Of a stretch of DNA of 64,000 nt, positions 5,185-63,850 are shown piece after piece. The notes below the pieces were generated by a model. The model was given only the letters and a program-made list of their open reading frames with translations. It ran no database searches and was not told the DNA's origin. A program made the position numbers and the translations under genes. Source of the stretch: Minisyncoccota bacterium (GTDB taxonomy: Bacteria; Patescibacteriota; Minisyncoccia; Phycocordibacterales; PALSA-1337). Each line of letters begins with the position of its first letter. Positions within the stretch are counted from its first letter, which is position 1. Where the stretch lies: contig JBAYFZ010000001.1 in assembly GCA_041666915.1 (NCBI GenBank), positions 73,086 through 137,085 of the forward strand, read 5' to 3'.

Positions 5185-5950
5185 AAGACGTAGTAATACA
5201 AAAATAATCACGCTTATCACGGTCGTTGTCTTTATTGTATTTATTTTAATTCAAATATTTATACCACATATTTTCTCGGCTATATTCACCAGTATGGTCG
5301 CGCCATTTTGGCGAGCAGAATTTTCTATAGAAAGTGGAAGTCTCTCTTCACCTTCAGCTTTGCTTCGCGAGAATGAAGCTTTGAAACAAGAACTATCTTC
5401 GGTATTGGCTAGGATGAATGTTATTGAGTATATTGATTTTGAGAATTCTGAACTCCGTTCTCAAATGAGTAGAGGTTCGTCTACTACTCCGCATGTTTCA
5501 GTTGTTGTTTTGAAGCGACCACCTTTTTCATCTTATGATGAACTTATCATTGATGCCGGATTAGATCGTAATATTTCAACTACCAGTACCGTCTATGCTA
5601 ACGGAAATATCCCTATTGGTAGAGTCTTTGAAGTTTCGGGGCAGACTTCAAAAGTTATTCTTTTTTCTTCACCCAATCAAAAACAAGAAGTGCTCATTGG
5701 TCCGACTCATATTCCAGCTACAGCTATAGGTCGTGGCGGAGGTCAATATGAGGTAGAATTGCCAAGGGGTTTACAAGTTAATGAAGGTGATTTCGTCATT
5801 CTAGCTTCTTCTGATACTAGGCCAATAGGTAAAGTTGTTTCAATCAGTTCTGATTCAGCCGAACCTTTCCAAAAAATACTTTTTTCTCCACCAATCAATA
5901 TTTATGAATTAAGATGGGTCTCGGTTGATGTTGGTGGCAAGAAAAGATAA
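5159..5950 (+). CDS. mreC: rod shape-determining protein MreC-like
   Basis: N-terminal TM helix, coiled-coil segment and C-terminal beta-rich domain, immediately downstream of and overlapping mreB. Confidence 0.65.
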   Translation: MKMTYLEPKRRSNTKIITLITVVVFIVFILIQIFIPHIFSAIFTSMVAPFWRAEFSIESGSLSSPSALLRENEALKQELSSVLARMNVIEYIDFENSELRSQMSRGSSTTPHVSVVVLKRPPFSSYDELIIDAGLDRNISTTSTVYANGNIPIGRVFEVSGQTSKVILFSSPNQKQEVLIGPTHIPATAIGRGGGQYEVELPRGLQVNEGDFVILASSDTRPIGKVVSISSDSAEPFQKILFSPPINIYELRWVSVDVGGKKR

Positions 5951-5953
5951 TTT

Positions 5954-6338
5954 GTTGTCATTCCCGCGAAGGCGGGAATCCAGGATATTACCAAGACATA
6001 ACGAATAGTATGAATAAGGTATATTATGTTTATATATTAGCGAATGATAAGAATGGTACTTTGTATATAGGTGTTACTAATGATCTTAGAAGAAGGTTAT
6101 ATGAACATAAGAATAACCTAGTAAAAGGATTTACAAAGAAATATAATGTCCATAAACTAGTTTGGTACGAATATACTAATAGTATTGATTCTGCAATACA
6201 AAGAGAGAAACAGCTTAAGAAATGGAACCGTAAGTGGAAGATTAGACTAATTGAAGAAACCAATCCTATTTGGAAAGATTTATCTAATGACGATCTGTAG
6301 TGGTAATATCCTGGATTCCCGCCTTCGCGGGAATGACA
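5954..6338. mobile_element. 385-bp element: GIY-YIG nuclease gene flanked by perfect 37-bp terminal inverted repeats identical to the window's MITE family
   Basis: Left arm TGTCATTCCCGCGAAGGCGGGAATCCAGGATATTACC (5954-5990). Right arm is its exact reverse complement (6302-6338). The mreC stop and the GIY-YIG stop abut the arms. Confidence 0.6.
6010..6300 (+). CDS. GIY-YIG nuclease family protein (UPF0213/YhbQ-like, 96 aa)
   Basis: YYVYILANDKNGTLYIGVTNDLRRRLYEHK motif (GIY-YIG with conserved R and E). Confidence 0.8.
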   Translation: MNKVYYVYILANDKNGTLYIGVTNDLRRRLYEHKNNLVKGFTKKYNVHKLVWYEYTNSIDSAIQREKQLKKWNRKWKIRLIEETNPIWKDLSNDDL

Positions 6339-6344
6339 CAAAAA

Positions 6345-6626
6345 ATGAACAAAAATACAATTAAAAGATTAATATGTGACTTACTGATCTTAATATCAGT
6401 TATGAATGGTTGGTGGCCAATTGCTATAGTTGTTGGCTTATTCGGTAATTGGTTCTTCTTGTATTTTATAGAAATAATAATCGCTGGAGTAATATTTGAT
6501 TCACTTTTTGGTTACAACCAATATCTTGGAGTAGTCGGATATTATGGAACAATAATAACTGTAGTCATTTTCATCATAATTTCCGGATTGAAGAAAGTGT
6601 TAGGAAGAGGAAATAATATGTCATAA
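6345..6626 (+). CDS. small integral membrane protein (3 TM) in the MreD position
   Basis: Hydrophobic 93-aa ORF between mreC and the PBP2 gene. The upstream part of the called ORF is read-through of the repeat arm. MreD identity is positional inference only. Confidence 0.35.
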   Translation: MNKNTIKRLICDLLILISVMNGWWPIAIVVGLFGNWFFLYFIEIIIAGVIFDSLFGYNQYLGVVGYYGTIITVVIFIIISGLKKVLGRGNNMS

Positions 6627-10474: not shown

Positions 10475-11071
10475 TTATGCTTTTTGCTTCAGCAATTCTG
10501 CAATCTTGCGGATGATAAGTTTCCTTACTTCACTTTCATTGGGGACAAGAGAGTATGCCCCCGTAGCTTCAGCAATAGTGGTGATATTGTTAATTGCTAC
10601 AAGTGACAATTCATTCAACTTTTCTAAAACAAGATATTCGAATGGGCTCCTATCATGAGTAGCGTCGTATACTTCTTTGATTTCATCGATGGTCGTACAG
10701 AAACTAACCCATTTTTCTATAGCAAGCCTTTCGACTTCACCTCTATCAGAAGCAACATCATACACCTCCTGAACTTCAGTAATGGTAGCACAAAGATTGA
10801 TCCATTTTTCTATAGCAAGCCTTTCGAATTCACTTGAAGCAGGAGTAGCATAATATACTTCTTTGATTTCATCGATGGTGGTACATAAACTAATCCATCT
10901 TTCTATAGCAAGTTTTTCGGCCTTGCTTCTACTGGGAGCAAGTGTGTATGCTTCTGCAGCTTTGTCAATGGTCGTAATGTCACCTATAATAATTTCAGAA
11001 TCCAGAGCTTCATTGACAACGCGGATGTCTTCTCCTAAAAGATCAGCTATCTCTCTATTTATATTACTCAT
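10475..11071 (-). CDS. hypothetical protein with three tandem ~25-aa repeats (ERLAIEKW..C.TI.E..EVY)
   Basis: Start chosen at MSNINREIAD, preceded by GGAGAAGG RBS. Internal 75-nt periodic repeats are visible in DNA (about 10640-10900). Confidence 0.5.
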   Translation of the reverse strand: MSNINREIADLLGEDIRVVNEALDSEIIIGDITTIDKAAEAYTLAPSRSKAEKLAIERWISLCTTIDEIKEVYYATPASSEFERLAIEKWINLCATITEVQEVYDVASDRGEVERLAIEKWVSFCTTIDEIKEVYDATHDRSPFEYLVLEKLNELSLVAINNITTIAEATGAYSLVPNESEVRKLIIRKIAELLKQKA

Positions 11072-11253
11072 ACCTTCTCCTATTCTATTGTTTTGCTGAT
11101 ATTTCAACCAGCTTGTACTTAAAACTATAATGTACAATATCGTAATAATATATACGTGTCAATGATTGACCAAAATCTATATACGTGCTATATTGCCGTA
11201 GTACTGCTCTTTTTTATGTTTGAAGGGCTCGTTTCAAAAAAGCAAAATAACTT

Positions 11254-12368: not shown

Positions 12369-13343
12369 ATGCAAAGTGTACATGAACCGGTTCTTTTACA
12401 TGAGATAGTGGCAAACTGTGTCATTTCCGCGAAGGCGGAAATCCAGGATGTCACCGAGAATGTATCTAGTGGTAATACACTGGATTCCCACCTTCGTGGG
12501 AATGACAAGAAGACCCCTTGGTACCTCGACGGTACTCTCGGTGGAGCAGGTCACGCTTTGGCTATAGCAAAAGCATTCGCTGGCAAGTTGAATATTATCG
12601 GCTTGGACAGAGATGCTACGGCTCTAGAGAGAGCAAAAGGGACTTTGGCAGGCAAAGCAGAGAAGGTGATACTGGAATGTGAGAATTTTCGTAATTTAGA
12701 TAAAGTTTTGGAGAAAAATGGTATTGATTCAGTCGCTTTGATTCTAATGGATTTGGGTATTTCATCTGACGAACTAGATAATTCTGGTAGAGGGTTCACT
12801 TTTCAGAAAGACGAACCTTTGCTCATGACTATGGGAGATCCAAAATCTTATCCATTCACAGCAAAAGATATTGTGAACGATTGGGATGAAGAAGTGATCG
12901 CCGATATTATCTACGGTTATGCCGAAGAGAGGTTTGCAAGAAAGATCGCTAAAGCAATAGTCAATTATAGAGAGAAGAAAAGTATAGAAACATCGGGAGA
13001 GTTGGCAGAAATAGTGAAAATGTCAGTACCGGGCTTTTATAAGAGAGGAAAGATTCATCCGGCTACAAGAACATTTCAAGCTTTACGTATTGCAGTCAAT
13101 GATGAGCTTAATTCATTGAAAGAAGGATTGAGAAAAGGTTACGAAAAGTTGGATAAAGGTGGACGAATGGCAATTATTTCATTCCATAGTTTAGAAGATC
13201 GTATCGTCAAAGATTTTTATAAAGAAAAAGCAAAAGAAGGTTCCAAAATTATTACAAAAAAACCGATTACCGCTTCTTTGCAAGAAATTGCAGAGAATCC
13301 AAGGTCAAGAAGTGCAAAATTAAGGATTATTGAAAAAATATGA
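12369..13343 (+). CDS. rsmH: 16S rRNA (cytosine1402-N4)-methyltransferase RsmH, with an in-frame ~29-aa repeat-element insertion near the N-terminus
   Basis: HEPVLLHEIV...YLDGTLGGAGHA and downstream SAM-binding motifs. The segment ISAKAEIQDVTENVSSGNTLDSHLRGNDKK is encoded by a MITE copy. Confidence 0.85.
   Translation: MQSVHEPVLLHEIVANCVISAKAEIQDVTENVSSGNTLDSHLRGNDKKTPWYLDGTLGGAGHALAIAKAFAGKLNIIGLDRDATALERAKGTLAGKAEKVILECENFRNLDKVLEKNGIDSVALILMDLGISSDELDNSGRGFTFQKDEPLLMTMGDPKSYPFTAKDIVNDWDEEVIADIIYGYAEERFARKIAKAIVNYREKKSIETSGELAEIVKMSVPGFYKRGKIHPATRTFQALRIAVNDELNSLKEGLRKGYEKLDKGGRMAIISFHSLEDRIVKDFYKEKAKEGSKIITKKPITASLQEIAENPRSRSAKLRIIEKI
12419..12506. repeat. MITE-family copy inserted in-frame within rsmH
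   Basis: TGTCATTTCCGCGAAGGCGGAAATCCAGGAT...CACTGGATTCCCACCTTCGTGGGAATGACA. Arms are slightly diverged. The internal GTATCTAGTGGTAATACACTGG is shared with the pheT copy. Confidence 0.7.
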
Positions 13344-15409: not shown

Positions 15410-15512
15410 TGTCATTCCCGCGAAGGCGGGAATCCAGGATATTACCATTGAAGATATTATAATAGTTGTTTGTTCGTAATAATCCTGGATCCCCGCCTTC
15501 GCGGGGATGACA
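15410..15512. repeat. MITE-family copy (intergenic ftsI-murF), 103 bp
   Basis: TGTCATTCCCGCGAAGGCGGGAATCCAGGATATTACC...AATCCTGGATCCCCGCCTTCGCGGGGATGACA. The left arm is identical to the arms of the GIY-YIG element. Confidence 0.75.
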
Positions 15513-33726: not shown

Positions 33727-34350
33727 GTGAATAATATTGAATCAGTTAAAAAAGAGATTACTCTTCAAGCAATAGCAAATTCACTGGAGTTGATCACAAA
33801 GACTCTAGGTAATTTTGCTACCAAAAAGGATCTTACTGATTCTCAAGCGAATTTCATTACAAAGAAAGACCTGACTGATTCTCAGGTAAATTTCGCTACC
33901 AAGAAGGATCTTGAGGCTTTTGCTACAAAGAAAGACCTCGAAAGGTTTGCTACCAAGAAAGATCTTGAAACTTTCGCTACAAAGAAAGATCTTGAGAATT
34001 TTCCCACCAAGAAGGATTTGGCTGATTCTCTTGCAAATTTCGCTACCAAGAAAGATCTTGAAAGATTTGCTACAAAGAGTGATCTTGAAAGTCTTGCCGT
34101 CAAAACAGAAGCATCCTTTGCTCGTTTAGAGGATTTGATTGACGGTCTCGCTATCATGACAAAGACCGAACTTTTCAAAGTAGAACATAGGCTTTCTGAT
34201 AGGATTGATGAATTGGATAAAAAAGTTGATCGCAACCATACGTATTCGGTCAATCAGTTAGATTATATAATGACGCATTACGCTAGGAGACAAGAGTATG
34301 TACATTTTGATGGTCGTCTGAAGAAGATTGAAAGAAAGGTCTTTGCATGA
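33727..34350 (+). CDS. hypothetical protein with about ten tandem 11-residue repeats (FATKKDLExFxx)
   Basis: 33-nt periodic DNA repeat about 33820-34090. GTG start. C-terminal unique domain. Confidence 0.5.
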   Translation: MNNIESVKKEITLQAIANSLELITKTLGNFATKKDLTDSQANFITKKDLTDSQVNFATKKDLEAFATKKDLERFATKKDLETFATKKDLENFPTKKDLADSLANFATKKDLERFATKSDLESLAVKTEASFARLEDLIDGLAIMTKTELFKVEHRLSDRIDELDKKVDRNHTYSVNQLDYIMTHYARRQEYVHFDGRLKKIERKVFA

Positions 34351-45812: not shown

Positions 45813-45934
45813 TGTCATTCCCGCGAAGGCGATTTAGCAAAATCGTGTCGAATGGACCGGGAATCCATGGTTACCACAAGATATAGACTGTTGATTCGTA
45901 ATAATCCTGGATTCCCGCCTTCGCGGGAATGACA
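45813..45934. repeat. MITE-family copy (subfamily with a 27-bp insertion in the left arm), intergenic
   Basis: TGTCATTCCCGCGAAGGCG[ATTTAGCAAAATCGTGTCGAATGGACC]GGGAATCCA...TTCGTAATAATCCTGGATTCCCGCCTTCGCGGGAATGACA. Confidence 0.75.
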
Positions 45935-49563: not shown

Positions 49564-49689
49564 TGTCATTCCCACGAAGGCGATTTAGCAAAATCGTGTC
49601 GAATGGACCGGGAATCCAGTGTGTTACCACTTAGTATGCTGACTTTTAGTTCGTAATAATCCTGGATTCCCGCCTTCGCGGGAATGACA
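49564..49689. repeat. MITE-family copy (same subfamily as 45813-45934), intergenic eno/MFS
   Basis: TGTCATTCCCACGAAGGCG[ATTTAGCAAAATCGTGTCGAATGGACC]GGGAATCCA...CCTGGATTCCCGCCTTCGCGGGAATGACA, plus a partial extra GGAATGACAAAAA at 49697-49709. Confidence 0.75.
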
Positions 49690-49708
49690 ACAACAGGAAT
49701 GACAAAAA

Positions 49709-55087: not shown

Positions 55088-55777
55088 TTATAGCAATTTC
55101 AGATTTTCTGGAGTATCCATGATATAACCTCTTCCAGCAATGTTTGCTATGAGATTTGGCTTGTTACCTGTATTTATTTTCTTACGGAGATTGGTTATAT
55201 GAGCCTCTACTGTATTTGAAAAAGGGTTATTATCGGCTGTCCAGACATGTTCCATAAGCATGGCTCTAGATAAGACAATACCGATATTTTTCATGAAATA
55301 TTCCAATAGACCAAATTCTTTACGAGTTGGATGTATTCTCCTATTTCCTCGCCTTACAATATTTTTTTCAGAGTCTAATTCTAAATCGTGAACACGGAGT
55401 ATATGATTCTTTACTATGACAGGACGGCGGGATAGGGCTTTTAGTCGTGCAGATAATTCTTGTAGTGAAAAAGGCTTTTGTAAATAATCGTCAGCACCAC
55501 TTTCAAAAGCCATCATTTTTGTTTCAATACCTCCGTCTATTGTCAAAAACAGGATAGGCGTTGTCTTTCCAGCACTTCTGATCTCTCTACATATAGTGAG
55601 TCCGTCTTTCTTTGGTAAAGAATTGTCCAAAATTATAGCATCGTATTCAAAACTTCTAGCCAAGAATGAACCGTCGGCACCGTTATCTGTTAATTCAACA
55701 GTATTATTTTGGGCCATTAAATCGTTTTTGACGGTCTTGGCTAACTGCTGATCATCTTCAACAATGAGTAGCTTCAT
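55088..55777 (-). CDS. two-component response regulator, OmpR/PhoB family (orphan; no adjacent histidine kinase)
   Basis: MKLLIVEDD receiver domain with conserved D/K residues and a C-terminal winged-helix (RVHDLELD...LTRKEFGLLEY...NTVEAHITNLRKK). The upstream extension of the ORF is read-through of a MITE. Confidence 0.8.
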   Translation of the reverse strand: MKLLIVEDDQQLAKTVKNDLMAQNNTVELTDNGADGSFLARSFEYDAIILDNSLPKKDGLTICREIRSAGKTTPILFLTIDGGIETKMMAFESGADDYLQKPFSLQELSARLKALSRRPVIVKNHILRVHDLELDSEKNIVRRGNRRIHPTRKEFGLLEYFMKNIGIVLSRAMLMEHVWTADNNPFSNTVEAHITNLRKKINTGNKPNLIANIAGRGYIMDTPENLKLL

Positions 55778-55824
55778 GTTGGCGTAAGTATGCGGAATCT
55801 TTGGTAAATATGCAAGTCCCGTTA

Positions 55825-55914
55825 TGTCATTCCCGCGAAGGCGGGAATCCATGTCAGACCACAAATAAACTTTTCTTGGTAATATCCTGGATTCCCGCCT
55901 TCGCGGGAATGACA
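55825..55914. repeat. MITE-family copy in the response-regulator promoter region
   Basis: TGTCATTCCCGCGAAGGCGGGAATCCATGTCAGACCACAAATAAACTTTTCTTGGTAATATCCTGGATTCCCGCCTTCGCGGGAATGACA. Confidence 0.75.
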
Positions 55915-55970
55915 CAAGAGGACCAACGGATTTGACTTAACCCCGCGATTTTGTTACCTTATGTCTACAT

Positions 55971-57857: not shown

Positions 57858-58005
57858 TTTAAATTCGCCATCTTAGCTGTTTTGGTAGGTATGAGCGGGT
57901 GGGTCGTAAGGAGTAAGTGTCCAAAGAAAATTAAATTCGCCATCTTAGCTGTTTTGGTAGGTATGAACGGGTGGATCATGAGAAGTTAGTGTTCAAAGAA
58001 AATTA
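57858..58005 (+). repeat. two tandem ~72-bp repeats, each beginning with a degenerate copy of the tRNA-Thr 5' end
   Basis: TTAAATTCGCCATCTTAGCTGTTTTGGTAGGTATGARCGGGTGG... occurs twice, then a third time as the authentic tRNA (GCCATCTTAGCTCAGTTGGTAGAGC). Confidence 0.65.
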
Positions 58006-58010
58006 AATTC

Positions 58011-58083
58011 GCCATCTTAGCTCAGTTGGTAGAGCAACACTTTTGTAAAGTGAAGGTCCTCGGTTCGAATCCGAGAGATGGCT
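58011..58083 (+). tRNA. tRNA-Thr (anticodon UGU)
   Basis: Acceptor GCCATCT/AGATGGC, canonical D-arm, anticodon loop TTTGTAA, T-arm CTCGG-TTCGAAT-CCGAG. Confidence 0.8.
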
Positions 58084-58114
58084 CCTTAGGAATACTCAGA
58101 GATAGTGATTATTA

Positions 58115-58582: not shown

Positions 58583-59290
58583 ATGGAAAACGATAAAAAG
58601 GGTCACCTACATCCCATAACTCAAATAGTTCGTGAGATTTTTTCAATATTTAGAGATTTAGGTTTTGAAATAGCAGACGGACCAGAATTGGAAGATGAAT
58701 TCCATAACTTTGATGCTTTGAATGTTCCGAAAGATCACCCGGCTCGAGATATGCAAGATACGTTTTGGATCAAGGATGCTCCAGATGCAGACAAAAAGAG
58801 AGTTCTACGTACTCACACCTCTTCGGTTCAGATTAGGTACATGGAGAAACATAAACCACCAGTACGTATTATTATCCCTGGTAAAGTTTTTCGTAATGAA
58901 GCTACCGATGCTACGCACGAAGCTCAATTTTTCCAGATAGAAGCTCTCTATGTAGACAAAAATGTTTCCATGGCGCATTTGAAAGGAACTTTGGAAAATA
59001 TGTTCAAGAAATTATTTGGCGATGACGTAGAGATACGATTCCGTCCAAGTTTCTTTCCATTTACCGAACCTAGTGTTGAAGTAGATATGAAATGGAAAGG
59101 TAAATGGTTGGAAATGGGTGGTGCAGGTCTCGTACAAAAGAATGTTTTTGAAGCTGTTGGTGTAGATCCAAATGAATGGCAAGGATTTGCTTTTGGTTTT
59201 GGTTTGGACCGTCTTGTTATGCTCAAGTTTGGTATTGATGATGTCCGTTTTCTTTATAATGGAGATCTAAGATTGGTAAATCAATTTTAA
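58583..59290 (+). CDS. pheS: phenylalanine--tRNA ligase alpha subunit (catalytic core only, 235 aa)
   Basis: FDALNVPKDHPARDMQDTFWI, RTHTS, FFQIEALY, and class II motif 3 GFAFGFGLDRLVML. Confidence 0.85.
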   Translation: MENDKKGHLHPITQIVREIFSIFRDLGFEIADGPELEDEFHNFDALNVPKDHPARDMQDTFWIKDAPDADKKRVLRTHTSSVQIRYMEKHKPPVRIIIPGKVFRNEATDATHEAQFFQIEALYVDKNVSMAHLKGTLENMFKKLFGDDVEIRFRPSFFPFTEPSVEVDMKWKGKWLEMGGAGLVQKNVFEAVGVDPNEWQGFAFGFGLDRLVMLKFGIDDVRFLYNGDLRLVNQF

Positions 59291-59294
59291 TTTT

Positions 59295-59507
59295 ATGAAA
59301 CTCGGGACATATCAACATTCAAAAACTGGCAATCTCTACAAGGTTCATTTTGTAGCCAAACATTCTGAAACTTTGGAAGATATGGTTTGTTACGAAGCAC
59401 TTTATGAAAATGATAAGTCCAAGTTTTGGGTAAGACCGATAGAGACGTTCAATGGCGAAGTAGAAATAAAAGGCGAGAAAGTTCCTAGATTTAAATTTAT
59501 AAAATAA
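59295..59507 (+). CDS. DUF1653-family small protein
   Basis: LGTYQHSKTGNLYKVHFVAKHSETLEDMVCYEALYENDKSKFWVRPIETF...VPRFKFI fits the DUF1653 pattern. Inserted between pheS and pheT. Confidence 0.65.
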   Translation: MKLGTYQHSKTGNLYKVHFVAKHSETLEDMVCYEALYENDKSKFWVRPIETFNGEVEIKGEKVPRFKFIK

Positions 59508-59508
59508 T

Positions 59509-61611
59509 ATGAAAGTCTCACGAAATTGGTTACAAACATATTTTGATAAAGAAATTCCAACAGCAGAGAAGTTGGATGAGCTTTTTACTTTCCATGCTTT
59601 TGAAGTTGAAGGAGTAGAGACTTTGACTGGGCCTGGTATCGCTAAACCCGATTCTATTCTTGACGTGAAGATTCTTCCAGACCGTGCTCATTATGATCTT
59701 TGTCACAATGGTATCGCTAGAGAAATTTCAGTCCTGACCGGTTTACCTATGAAAAATCGCTTTGCTGAAGAGCTCAAAGTTACTAGCAAAGAGAAGCCTT
59801 CCGTAAAAATCATTTCCGGAGGTGAAGCCTTCGGAAGCCTCGCTTCCGGAAAGCAGTTTTGTCGTCGTTATACGGCTAGAACTATTGAATTGGGTAGTTC
59901 AAAAGCGGTAGGAACATCCCCTGTATGGCTCAAAAATGCTCTAGAATCAATAGGACAACGCTCTATCAACTCTATCGTGGATATTACAAATTACGTCATG
60001 TATGACATTGGTCAACCATTGCATGCTTTTGATGCCGATAAGGTCAAAGGTGGTATTACTATTCGTCCAGCCAAAGATAGTGAAAAAATAACTTTGCTTG
60101 ATGGTAGAGAGATCATTTTGACTTCTGTTGATAATGTTATCGCCGATGAAGAAGGTCCTCTTGTCATCGCTGGCGCAAAAGGTGGTAGACGCGCAGAAAT
60201 CGGTGAGTCAACAAAAAAGATAATTATAGAATCTGCCAATTTTGATCCAACTATGGTTCGTCGCACTGCTACGAAATATGATATTCGTAGCGATTCTTCA
60301 AAGAGATTTGAAAATGAAATAACTGCTGAGCTCGCTATGAATGGTATGAATAATGTTTCAGCTCTTATTTTAGAAATGATTCCTGATGCAAAATTCGGTC
60401 CTGTTGTTGATGGATATCCAGTAGAACAAACACCGACTGTTATAGATTTTGATCCAGCTTATTTGAAAGAACGTCTAGGAGTAGATGTTCCATTGGATGA
60501 AGCAAAAAGTATTTTGGAAAGAATGGGGATCGTGGTTTCTGTCATTCCCGCGAAGGCGGGAATCCAGGATATGACCAAGGAATCTGTATCTAGTGGTAAT
60601 ACACTGGATTCCCGCCGAAGTTTATCCTCGGAGAGGACGGTAAATGACACAGAACAATGGATTCTTACCATTCCTTTTGAACGCCTAGACCTTATCATTA
60701 AAGAAGATATTGTAGAAGAGGTAGGACGTGTCTACGGTTATGATAAGGTCAAAGGAATACTTCCACCTTTACAAAAAGATGAATCAAATAAAAAGGTCTC
60801 AGAAATTTTGCCGTTATTCTATGTTTCAGAGAAAATAAAGAGTACCTTGGTTGAACTAGGTTTCTCTGAAGTTAGCCTTTACGCTTTGGTTGAAAAAGGT
60901 GATATAGAAATCGCTAAACCTTTGGCCAAAGATAAAGGTTTTGCTCGCAACAATCTTTCAGGTGGAATGATGGCTTGTGTAGAAAAAAATGCTCTCAATG
61001 CAGACCTCCTCGGCCTTGAAGTTGTGAAAGTCTTTGAGGTTGGACATGTTTTCACAGACAAATCAGAACAAGTTCATTTATCTATTGGTGTTGCACAAAT
61101 AAAAAAGGTAAAAGGTTTGAAAGCAGAAAATATTATTACGGAAGCGATCAAAAAGATTGAAGAAAAATTGATGGTCAGTATAAGTGGTAAGACGGTGAAT
61201 GGTAAAACTGGTAACTACAGTGTTTTTGAAATTGATCTAGAATCTATCGTCAAATCTTTCCAATCACCTATTTTATTTGAAGCTTTGAATTTCACCCCAG
61301 CTTCTACAAATCGTTACAAGAAATTCTCGTTATATCCATTCATCGTTCGCGATGTTGCGGTCTTCGTACCAGAATCGGTTGAAAGTGAAAAAGTTTGGAA
61401 TGTTATAGAAAAGGGTATTGCAGAAGCTGGTGCCAATGATCTGCTCGCACGTCATTCTTTGTTTGATACATTCAAAAAAGAAGGAAAAGTCTCTTACGCT
61501 TTCCGTATGATTTTCCAATCTAAAGAGAGGACTCTTACCGATGAAGAAGTAAATAAGACTATGGAGGTTATTTATTCTGGCTTGAAAGGGGAAGGTTGGG
61601 AGGTTAGGTAA
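59509..61611 (+). CDS. pheT: phenylalanine--tRNA ligase beta subunit, with an in-frame repeat-element insertion of about 36 aa
   Basis: MKVSRNWLQTYF N-terminus, B3/4 and B5 regions, C-terminal FDVA-like domain. The segment VIPAKAGIQDMTKESVSSGNTLDSRRSLSSERTVND is encoded by a MITE copy. Confidence 0.85.
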   Translation: MKVSRNWLQTYFDKEIPTAEKLDELFTFHAFEVEGVETLTGPGIAKPDSILDVKILPDRAHYDLCHNGIAREISVLTGLPMKNRFAEELKVTSKEKPSVKIISGGEAFGSLASGKQFCRRYTARTIELGSSKAVGTSPVWLKNALESIGQRSINSIVDITNYVMYDIGQPLHAFDADKVKGGITIRPAKDSEKITLLDGREIILTSVDNVIADEEGPLVIAGAKGGRRAEIGESTKKIIIESANFDPTMVRRTATKYDIRSDSSKRFENEITAELAMNGMNNVSALILEMIPDAKFGPVVDGYPVEQTPTVIDFDPAYLKERLGVDVPLDEAKSILERMGIVVSVIPAKAGIQDMTKESVSSGNTLDSRRSLSSERTVNDTEQWILTIPFERLDLIIKEDIVEEVGRVYGYDKVKGILPPLQKDESNKKVSEILPLFYVSEKIKSTLVELGFSEVSLYALVEKGDIEIAKPLAKDKGFARNNLSGGMMACVEKNALNADLLGLEVVKVFEVGHVFTDKSEQVHLSIGVAQIKKVKGLKAENIITEAIKKIEEKLMVSISGKTVNGKTGNYSVFEIDLESIVKSFQSPILFEALNFTPASTNRYKKFSLYPFIVRDVAVFVPESVESEKVWNVIEKGIAEAGANDLLARHSLFDTFKKEGKVSYAFRMIFQSKERTLTDEEVNKTMEVIYSGLKGEGWEVR
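60540..60648. repeat. MITE-family copy inserted in-frame within pheT (right arm degenerate)
   Basis: TGTCATTCCCGCGAAGGCGGGAATCCAGGATATGACC...GTATCTAGTGGTAATACACTGGATTCCCGCC|GAAG... Internal sequence is shared with the rsmH copy. Confidence 0.7.
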
Positions 61612-63236: not shown

Positions 63237-63767
63237 ATGATATCTTCAAAACAATCAGAAATTATTCCTTTAGAAGTTATAGGTCAACGAATTTTAATTA
63301 TTCGTGGCGTTAAAGTTATGCTAGATGCTGATCTTGCGGAATTGTATCAAGTAAGCACTAAACGCCTAAATGAACAAGTTAAAAGAAACAGTAGTAGATT
63401 TCCAGAAGATTTTATGTTTCAGCTTACAGAATTAGAAAGAAATGAGGTGGTCGCAAATTGCGACCACCTCACAAAGCTTAAATTTTCATATCAACTTCCC
63501 TATGCTTTTACTGAACATGGTGTCGTGATGCTTTCGGCAGTACTTAATAGTGGACGTGCTGTTGAAGTGAGTATATTTATTGCTCGTGCTTTTATTAAGA
63601 TTCGCGAGATGTTAGCTATAAATAAGGAATTTGCTCATAAAGTTGAGGAATTAGAGAGGGAGCAATATAAACAAGGCGGATATATAGTTGAAATACAAGA
63701 TATTTTGAGACTTCTAATTGAAGAACCTGTTAAACCTAAAGATCCTATAGGTTTTAAGATTGTTTAA
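63237..63767 (+). CDS. ORF6N/KilA-N-like DNA-binding (antirepressor-type) protein
   Basis: ILIIRGVKVMLDADLAELYQVSTKRLNEQVKRNSSRFPEDFMFQLT matches the ORF6N domain pattern. Confidence 0.6.
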   Translation: MISSKQSEIIPLEVIGQRILIIRGVKVMLDADLAELYQVSTKRLNEQVKRNSSRFPEDFMFQLTELERNEVVANCDHLTKLKFSYQLPYAFTEHGVVMLSAVLNSGRAVEVSIFIARAFIKIREMLAINKEFAHKVEELEREQYKQGGYIVEIQDILRLLIEEPVKPKDPIGFKIV

Positions 63768-63778
63768 TTGTATAAAAT

Positions 63779-63850
63779 AGGTGGTCGCAAATTGCGACTA
63801 CCTTGTGAGTAGTTTAAGTGTTTTTAACCGGTCGCAAATTGCGACCGGTT
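63779..63850. promoter_or_regulatory. two copies of the palindrome GGTCGCAAATTGCGACC downstream of the ORF6N gene (a third copy lies inside the CDS at 63444-63470)
   Basis: AGGTGGTCGCAAATTGCGACTACCT (63779-63805) and AACCGGTCGCAAATTGCGACCGGTT (63826-63850). Intragenic copy GAGGTGGTCGCAAATTGCGACCACCTC. Confidence 0.45.

Follow-up and report, generated by a model that had tools for sequence, protein, structure and literature searches.

Two conserved genes of a Minisyncoccota bacterium (Patescibacteria), rsmH and pheT, each carry an in-frame copy of a short palindromic repeat, and it is very probable that these copies sit in permissive loops and are translated as near-neutral insertions that leave the host enzymes intact. 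Both lie in a 64,000-nt stretch (hereafter the window; assembly GCA_041666915.1, contig JBAYFZ010000001.1, positions 73,086 to 137,085 of the forward strand) that contains seven elements of one family: a 383-bp unit with a nuclease gene (c1) and six gene-less dimers of 89 to 126 bp (c2 to c7), of which c2 is in rsmH and c7 is in pheT. By its sequence the hairpin at the ends of these elements is a repetitive extragenic palindrome (REP) of the CGTC-1 family, also known as NTS, and the element is thus of a kind already described. The open reading frames (ORFs) of both genes run across the copies with neither a stop nor a frameshift, and a reading of the stretch from its letters alone (the sequence-only reading) was right in proposing the two in-frame palindromic copies, with the peptides quoted exactly. 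The rsmH copy, given there as 88 bp, measures 89 bp (12419-12507), and the count of eight copies is reduced to seven, as those placed at 5954 and, as a right arm, at 6302 both belong to c1, as its left and right ends.

The rsmH insert lies in the linker from HEPVLLHE to WYLDGTLGG, which ranges from ~11 to >60 residues in RsmH homologues across the candidate phyla radiation (CPR). In a comparison of 120 Patescibacteria-type homologues, P0001 (300 aa, 87% identical) is the closest and is without the insert, and the net length gain relative to it is ~24 aa, rather than the ~29 residues first proposed. In P0065, a distant RsmH (66% identical), that linker contains a true copy of the element, read in the same frame and with both hairpins intact in the DNA. 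The c2 hairpins both contain compensatory stem changes (ATTTCCGC/GCGGAAAT and ATTCCCAC/GTGGGAAT), and the local hairpins are thus retained. All 61 family-invariant RsmH columns are kept in the window protein, and comparison of the window rsmH with the insert-free P0001 gene (contig L003) by the Nei-Gojobori method gives a ratio of nonsynonymous to synonymous substitutions (dN/dS) of 0.058 overall and 0.032 from residue 50 on, with dS at ~0.53. An identical 324-aa RsmH is encoded in two independent assemblies, ENA ERZ27249449 (a 450,810-bp contig) and Logan SRR6484324, which argues against a sequencing artefact.

The PheT insert is larger, with about 35 to 36 extra residues compared with minimal orthologues, close to the ~36 of the sequence-only reading. 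Most of the 120 PheT orthologues examined have a tight turn at this site (..GILIKES-GSIWNLTIP..) and, together with the insert-free closest RsmH relative, they bear out the expectation that the inserted segments are lineage-specific. The same element is present at the same PheT beta-hairpin and in the same frame in P0122, P0135, and, as a half copy, P0151. The left junctions differ, with the insert following MGIVVS in the window protein, MGIGVTEGSVP in P0122, and MGVL in P0135, and these sequence differences are read as independent insertions in one permissive loop; a single ancient insertion with many later losses is, strictly speaking, conceivable. The 73 family-invariant PheT columns are kept in the window protein, and insert-bearing PheT P0122 is found on 11 contigs from several samples.

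These observations make it extremely unlikely that rsmH and pheT are pseudogenes or that an assembly or consensus error produced the read-through. The contig was assembled from a metagenome and palindromic repeats can be mis-assembled, but the recurrence of the identical RsmH in two assemblies and of P0122 on many contigs, the strong purifying selection on rsmH, and the retention of the invariant residues all speak against this alternative, which the sequence-only reading had named as a refutation. The sequence-only reading called both genes essential; this holds for pheT, but rsmH is dispensable in model bacteria.

AlphaFold2 models made with family alignments predict that both inserts are low-confidence loops on confident folds, in agreement with the surface loops that the sequence-only reading expected. 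The RsmH core has a mean predicted local distance difference test (pLDDT) score of 90.2, with successive 10-residue blocks over residues 21-50 at 65, 48, and 62, and the insert is placed between a helix (residues 10-17) and a strand (residues 51-54) that leads into the GxGGH S-adenosylmethionine (SAM) loop. Sequence matches to solved RsmH structures start at query residues 38-52, within or just past the insert. In PheT, with a core mean pLDDT of 86.7, residues 353-379 score below 50 and lie between strands 342-346 and 383-388 of the B5 domain. In both models, scores below 50 are confined to the inserts.

In other CPR lineages the two loops are occupied by different long inserts with no relation to NTS, among them those of RsmH homologues P0073, P0119, P0007, and P0092 (e.g., ..RRTCSSEKLAGGILHNKVILQNRAHDF..) and PheT homologues P0160, P0161, P0165, P0167, P0187, P0143, and P0149, several of which contain ..TSAEVAPHSQSSALLPKVAS..; some of these inserts recur and may be translations of other repeat families. 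Unrelated inserts in the same two loops point to structural tolerance and not to sequence targeting. It is accordingly quite improbable that a GIY-YIG nuclease directs the element to rsmH and pheT sequences by homing, although classical homing endonucleases include GIY-YIG enzymes, both sites adjoin strongly conserved motifs (WYLDGTLGG and LTIPxERLD), and among 240 RsmH and PheT orthologues the element is confined to these loops (in two RsmH and four PheT lineages), with no copy elsewhere in either protein. The junction codons vary by lineage, most copies are intergenic, the flanks of 116 metagenomic dimers (described below) have no conserved target, with conservation ending 2 nt outside GTCATT, and the published nuclease SsnA does not cut double-stranded DNA (PMC11893778).

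A gain of function by the loops, for example as interaction surfaces, with recurrence as a mark of positive selection, is also very unlikely. It would fit the repeated retention at the same loops, as well as the partial loss of whole-element palindromy in intragenic copies that keep their local hairpins, but the inserts are predicted to be disordered, their differences between lineages mainly follow the DNA repeat with no conservation beyond the repeat's own, and the closest RsmH relative is without an insert. Whole-element folds are weaker in the intragenic copies (-23 and -27 kcal/mol) than in intergenic ones (-37 and -38 kcal/mol), a difference that might come from age, from selection against a long hairpin in mRNA or DNA, or from template-directed correction of the quasi-palindrome.

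Several local features of the two intragenic sites are of note. In the insert-free L003 gene, positions 255-285, aligned with window positions 12415-12515, read GTTAT followed directly by TGGTAATAAC (protein ..LVI-GNN..), resembling joined element tips GTCAT...TGGGAATGAC (..VI...GND..) at 12 of 15 positions; this tip-like site is absent from every other insert-free orthologue and could be either the footprint of a nearly wholly deleted ancestral copy or a tip-like target. The c2 region (12400-12479) has a sub-threshold Rfam match, at 22 bits against a gathering score of 66, to FtrB (Francisella small RNA B), and both GGGAATGAC and CGCGGGAAT are printed in a paper on Francisella small RNAs (PMC3091763); FtrB may be the transcript of an NTS-type repeat. 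In c7, ~24 nt (GAAGTTTATCCTCGGAGAGGACGG) replace or interrupt the right hairpin (60617-60642) and are able to form a small stem of their own, and this end no longer fits the degenerate SRM pattern discussed below. In the P0122 pheT copy (contig L004, about 5430-5470), the tip sequences GGGAATGACA and GCGAATGACA are repeated, the protein reading ..GNDKRDADGNDMEANDNK.., and c5 similarly has an additional GGAATGACA 6 nt past its right end (49696-49704). Such extra tips may be traces of repeated insertion and excision, or of slippage. Upstream of pheT, the pheS region (58583-59508) encodes a PheS of only 235 aa, with the Pfam class-II core spanning the whole protein, and is followed by a 218-bp gap; in the related contig L004 a DUF1653 gene lies between pheS and pheT.

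Each element end in the window forms a hairpin with a TGTC tag, an 8-bp stem (ATTCCCGC:GCGGGAAT), a 4-nt GAAG loop, and a CCA tail, and single-stranded DNA with TGTCATTCCCGCGAAGGCGGGAATCCAG is the predicted substrate of the nuclease encoded in c1. With up to 4 mismatches allowed, the window has 11 occurrences of the 31-nt end TGTCATTCCCGCGAAGGCGGGAATCCAGGAT or its reverse complement, and the inverted repeat extends to 41 nt in the window genome. Covariation supports the stem: 132 distinct hairpins show 82 compensatory double changes in the stem compared with 2 non-pairing doubles. The elements and their host genes are listed in the table.

Coordinates of the two host genes and the seven repeat elements in the window
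Feature	Position	Strand	Description
c1, NTS-ssn-NTS unit, 383 bp	5956..6338	+	Left hairpin end from 5956, ORF 6010-6300, right end to 6338
rsmH, host of c2	12369..13343	+	16S rRNA m4C1402 methyltransferase; 324 aa; PF01795 full length, E=1e-96
c2, 89-bp dimer	12419..12507		Head-to-head hairpin dimer inside rsmH; translated as VISAKAEIQDVTENVSSGNTLDSHLRGND
c3, 103-bp dimer	15410..15512		Intergenic, between a penicillin-binding protein (PBP) transpeptidase gene and a Mur ligase gene; single-stranded DNA fold -37.9 kcal/mol
c4, 122-bp dimer	45813..45934		Intergenic; left hairpin broken by a 26-nt insertion
c5, 126-bp dimer	49564..49689		Intergenic; left hairpin with the 26-nt insertion of c4
c6, 90-bp dimer	55825..55914		Upstream of an OmpR-type response-regulator gene; single-stranded DNA fold -37.1 kcal/mol
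pheT, host of c7	59509..61611	+	Phenylalanyl-tRNA synthetase beta subunit; 700 aa; Pfam B3_4, B5, CLM (tRNA_synthFbeta), FDX-ACB
c7, 109-bp dimer	60540..60648		Inside pheT (B5 domain); translated as VIPAKAGIQDMTKESVSSGNTLDSRRSLSSERTVND; right hairpin degenerate/interrupted

The family assignment follows from published descriptions of two repeats. Di Nocera, De Gregorio, and Rocco (2013, BMC Genomics 14:522; PMC3733652) define CGTC-1 by a (C/T)GTC tag, an 8-bp stem starting with AT, a 4-nt loop, and a CCA tail, report that CGTC REPs are mostly head-to-head dimers with spacers of 20 to 100 bp, and equate CGTC-1 with Neisseria dRS3 and with RPE-6, a Rickettsia palindromic element (RPE) of R. conorii. 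All intact window ends begin with TGTC, the stems of 8 bp begin with A-T pairs and are followed by the short CCA tail, and the six window dimers, as well as at least 120 further perfect dimers of 70 to 99 bp in metagenomes, have the dimeric form. The Neisseria NTS (CGTCATTCCCGCGMAVGCGGGAATCYRG), which contains dRS3 (ATTCCC-N8-GGGAAT; PMC11893778), is matched by the window end at 27 of 28 positions, the only mismatch being C1 to T, and without its first base it has 7 exact matches in the window. At the position concerned (-1), 73% of 116 metagenomic dimers have C and 18% have T. The degenerate pattern given in PMC11893778 for the Ssn-related motif (SRM), another name for this hairpin, has 9 matches in the window compared with 0.11 expected, and the hairpins flank the nuclease gene on both sides at 5956-6338.

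Some features of the intergenic copies bear on gene calling and on duplication within the family. The insertion shared by c4 and c5 (ATTTAGCAAAATCGTGTCGAATGGAC; 45832-45857 and 49583-49608) is in the 3' half of the left stem, and the two copies are 98% identical over 55 nt with differing spacers, from which it appears that a disrupted-hairpin variant was duplicated. Mechanically called ORFs begin inside element ends and acquire false N-terminal extensions, as at 6300-6626 (+) and 55088-55915 (-). The first is a 108-aa ORF after mreC whose start is a GTG within the c1 right hairpin, a start also used in the public contig's gene call; the OmpR-type response regulator ORF has 45 spurious residues, c6 included. 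As a candidate third intragenic copy c6 was rejected, since the response-regulator homology begins at residue 46-47, downstream of c6.

The ORF between the two c1 ends, overlooked in the sequence-only reading, is key to identifying the family. It codes for a 96-aa single-domain GIY-YIG protein (PF01541, E=1e-18) in which Y8, Y19, R29, and E66 are invariant among 77 sequences, and the Y8/Y19/E66 spacing is identical to that of the catalytic residues Y6/Y17/E64 of Neisseria meningitidis SsnA; the nearest PDB entry is UPF0213 protein 1zg2 (E=5e-4). The sequence fits an Ssn-type nuclease. Ssn proteins (cd10448) are small single-domain GIY-YIG enzymes that act as site-specific single-stranded DNA nucleases, binding a hairpin repeat and cutting beside it, with SsnA having no activity on double-stranded DNA or RNA, and ssn is typically situated between two repeats in an architecture "identical to" an insertion sequence (IS) (Chenal et al. 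2025, Nat Commun 16:2388; PMC11893778). A survey of species-representative genomes gives at least 580 relatives of the window protein, of which the best 80 are 61 to 76% identical and span more than 10 phyla; their sources are Gamma-, Delta-, and Alphaproteobacteria, Omnitrophota, Dehalococcoidales, Saccharibacteria, Zixibacteria, Bacteroidota, Brocadia, Cloacimonadota, Nitrospirales, Spirochaetes, and Patescibacteria. The hairpin is present at 54 of these 80 loci, typically ending ~15 nt before the start codon and beginning again ~7 nt after the stop.

Translated copies are not confined to rsmH and pheT. A scan of metagenome contigs for perfect dimers (a 25-nt end, 20 to 50 nt, and a second 25-nt end) recovers at least 122 dimers at no fewer than 120 loci, and among the dimers listed, 23 of 122 have a frame without stops for 50 or more codons on each side, most of them on contigs of 57 to 70% GC. 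Pfam comparison of the ten largest read-through ORFs identifies three in which the insert splits or separates domains: a SecA (L131) with a split DEAD domain, a DNA polymerase I (L178) with the dimer between the 5'-3' exonuclease and polymerase domains, and a class-I aminoacyl-tRNA synthetase (L118) with a split catalytic domain. HrpB, hydrolase, and pectate-lyase-like ORFs were rejected as in-frame hosts, the element being upstream of the first domain, and four more ORFs have no domain. The two low-GC cases, SecA and PolA, encode nearly the window peptide (VIPAKAGIQD.T...GN.LDSRLRGND), and all eight low-GC in-frame cases are read as VIPAKAGIQ...LDSRLRGND and not in the SFPRRRES...WIPAFAGMT frame, which is just as open; tolerance of a hydrophilic, Gly/Pro-rich loop may be the reason. 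A search of 5.8 billion proteins with a tandem 61-aa query of the element peptide returned 5 small hypothetical matches and is uninformative on host families because a 30-aa match is below the reach of significance.

From an internal core shared by c2 and c7, the sequence-only reading suggested that intragenic copies form a subfamily selected to remain open inside genes. This is unlikely, even though c2 and c7 are read in the same element frame and one frame is also used in the low-GC cases (RsmH P0065, PheT P0122 and P0135, SecA L131, and PolA L178). The claim of a core absent from intergenic copies holds for an exact 22-mer (GTATCTAGTGGTAATACACTGG), found in the window only in c2 and c7 with 0 expected by chance, but parts of the core do occur in other copies: 15 of 17 bases of TAGTGGTAATAnnCTGG are also at the right end of the ssn unit, where the TAG is the ssn stop codon, and TGGTAATATCCTGG, as the inner portion of the extended 41-nt inverted repeat, recurs in intergenic c6. 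That same repeat encodes the conserved internal peptide IQD.T...GN.LDS and is also in intergenic c1, c3, and c6. Base composition by itself leaves the GC-rich hairpin ends free of stops in 5 of 6 end frames, stops being confined to the AT-rich spacers; c2 has 4 of 6 frames open, and the longer intergenic copies have 0 to 3. The high-GC case L118 is read in another frame (RHSREGGNP...), and only ~3 of the 122 dimers listed are verified inside real proteins, as for rare survivors. With ends that are open by composition and a core explained as inverted repeat and unit remnant, a survivorship filter suffices.

Insert removal before the protein matures, in the manner of an intron or intein, is a further alternative to which we give almost no credence. 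In single-stranded nucleic acid the element can fold into a very stable hairpin; however, the best Rfam match at or near the inserts, at 22 bits, falls short of its gathering score of 66 and no family passes its threshold, giving no sign of an intron, and ~30 aa is far below intein size, with no intein motifs and no Pfam domain in the insert. Moreover, RPE-1-bearing Rickettsia proteins are reported to be expressed with the insert included, in work known here through its citation in PMC3733652. As best we can infer from the sequence, the inserts are present in the mature proteins, and an insert-bearing protein is predicted to yield tryptic peptides such as AEIQDVTENVSSGNTLDSHLR.

The preferred reading, of translated dimers in tolerant loops, implies the following course of events. 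Dimers would be mobilized in trans by Ssn, now or formerly, in a single-stranded and hairpin-dependent process without target duplication, with Ssn nicking hairpins on opposite strands at the two ends by a logic like that of REP/RAYT (REP-associated tyrosine transposase) and IS200/IS605. Two such dimers would have landed in the RsmH alpha1-beta1 linker, before the SAM-binding GxGGH loop, and in the PheT B5 beta-hairpin turn, both by chance stop-free and with a frame-preserving net length. They would be transcribed and translated as floppy ~30-residue loops on intact, selectively maintained enzymes and would persist as nearly neutral, the open state being a survivorship filter and not an adaptation of the element.

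The dimers themselves may be ssn units minus the ORF or, conversely, the unit may be a dimer invaded by the nuclease gene. Sequence hints favor derivation of the dimers from the ssn unit: all six dimers share its 41-nt extended inverted repeat, c2 and c7 share TAGTGGTAATA..CTGG with its right end, ssn stop codon included, and in place of this right-end signature c6 has a mirror of the unit's left arm (TCTTGGTAATA). The description of the copies as MITEs (miniature transposable elements with inverted repeats) is apt for their 31- to 41-nt terminal inverted repeats but is not supported in the strict sense, as a target-site duplication (TSD) of 3 bp or more, sought at any offset, is not found above background in 116 dimers or at all in the 7 window copies, and the unit with the same ends encodes a GIY-YIG nuclease and not a known transposase. 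More broadly, we tentatively propose, as a possibility with somewhat less than even prospects, that the hairpin-ssn-hairpin unit is an autonomous mobile element of a new mechanistic class, in which a GIY-YIG single-strand nuclease works on hairpin ends and leaves no target duplication, that gene-less CGTC-1 dimers, including those of RPE-6 type, are its non-autonomous derivatives, and that it is active in CPR bacteria, repeatedly placing ~30-residue loops into RsmH, PheT, SecA, PolA, and an aminoacyl-tRNA synthetase.

Several points weigh against these interpretations. Translation of the inserts is read only from the open frames and the selection signal, and the rsmH dN/dS averages two lineages and so gives no dating of the insertion. 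An exact breakpoint or clean empty site was sought in the closest rsmH (L003) and none was recovered because the L003 linker has itself diverged, and a second, insert-free copy of rsmH or pheT could formally exist outside the 64-kb window. Origin of the dimers by ORF deletion rests on a 3-nt signature and the shared inverted repeats. Of 76 ssn relatives, only 20 have recognizable hairpins on both sides (within 150 nt, at most 6 mismatches), and for the 96-aa protein NCBIfam lacks a dedicated model, giving only a sub-threshold match to a group-I-intron endonuclease. Finally, PMC11893778 shows binding and cleavage of single-stranded DNA and an effect on transformation, and transposition by Ssn has never been demonstrated.

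The window also contains other repeats. At its end, a different short palindrome (AGGTGGTCGCAAATTGCGACCACCT and variants) is present three times in a span of 400 bp (63440-63469, 63774-63803, and 63821-63850) and may be a second hairpin repeat family or a terminator set. Two tandem 72-nt copies, 90% identical, are directly upstream of tRNA-Thr (57859-58002; tRNA at 58011-58085). Tandem repeats within ORFs are present at 33803-34109 (~39-nt units, ATFATKKDL-like; ORF 33727-34350) and at 10615-10941 (93-nt units; ORF 10475-11137, reverse strand), and both ORFs code for repetitive proteins unrelated to the element.

In-frame CGTC dimers within genes have been known since 2013 (PMC3733652) and the link between Ssn and the hairpin since 2025 (PMC11893778), and what is added here is incremental: the phylum Patescibacteria, the host genes, the repeated hits in the same two loops of other lineages, the SecA, PolA, and tRNA synthetase cases, and the hints that the dimers stem from the ssn unit. 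Taken alone, the window is a further instance of a documented phenomenon, extended to Patescibacteria and to new host proteins. It does unite within 64 kb an Ssn unit, gene-less dimers, and copies predicted to be translated in core enzymes, thereby linking the CGTC-REP/RPE work, which had no mobilizing enzyme, with the Ssn work, which had no coding insertions or dimers, two bodies of literature without mutual citation in this matter; the open-access full text of neither paper connects the dimers or coding insertions with the nuclease. If the autonomous-element proposal is true, it names the missing "transposase" of CGTC REPs and RPEs and a general source of protein loop insertions in reduced genomes, and the window offers concrete substrates for the question of Ssn-mediated repeat mobilization. 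For annotation, it explains the VIPAKAGIQ, LDSRLRGND, IPAFAGMT, and SFPRRRES strings in the window, as well as the false N-terminal extensions.

Among known systems, the REP and BIME (bacterial interspersed mosaic element) repeats that form "REPtrons" with RAYT genes (IS200/IS605-like, Y1) resemble the window in having one repeat-flanked gene, no TSD, and recognition of a single-stranded hairpin, but their tag is GTAG and their enzyme an HUH tyrosine transposase instead of a GIY-YIG nuclease, and the likeness is one of analogy only. Neisseria dRS3 and the Neisseria intergenic mosaic elements (NIME) share the core palindrome ATTCCC-N8-GGGAAT (PMC1797815) but are arranged in long intergenic arrays, together with RS spacers, and are used as sites of phage integration, whereas the window has isolated dimers, two of them coding. 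Closer is the NTS/SsnA system, with the same NTS-ssn-NTS layout, a ~96-aa single-domain GIY-YIG protein, the same catalytic spacing, and a wide phylum range; Neisseria SsnA modulates natural transformation, whereas the window genome is known from sequence alone and its hairpin begins with T instead of C, and PMC11893778 makes no mention of gene-less dimers as mobile derivatives, coding insertions, RPEs, or Patescibacteria. CGTC-1 REPs agree with the window in tag, stem, loop, tail, dimeric form, and in-frame copies within genes. According to PMC3733652, CGTC dimers in genes encode 20 to 30 residues, their hosts include DNA polymerase I and tRNA synthetases, different elements are found at about the same site in orthologous genes, and no transposase of their own is apparent for CGTC REPs. 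The comparison with RPEs (Ogata et al. 2000, Science 290:347; 2002, Genome Res), especially RPE-6 and RPE-4, turns out to be stronger than the sequence-only reading held. Classical RPE-1 is different, at ~150 bp and ~45 aa, and is not stated to be of CGTC type, but the window element is probably homologous to RPE-6, beyond analogy, because the classification of PMC3733652 puts RPE-6, dRS3, and this hairpin together in CGTC-1, an equivalence by that 2013 classification and not by alignment. As in the RPEs, the window has palindromic repeats in frame within conserved housekeeping protein genes, at positions that the structure tolerates and that are compatible with the protein surface, and the bacterium is host-dependent with a small genome.

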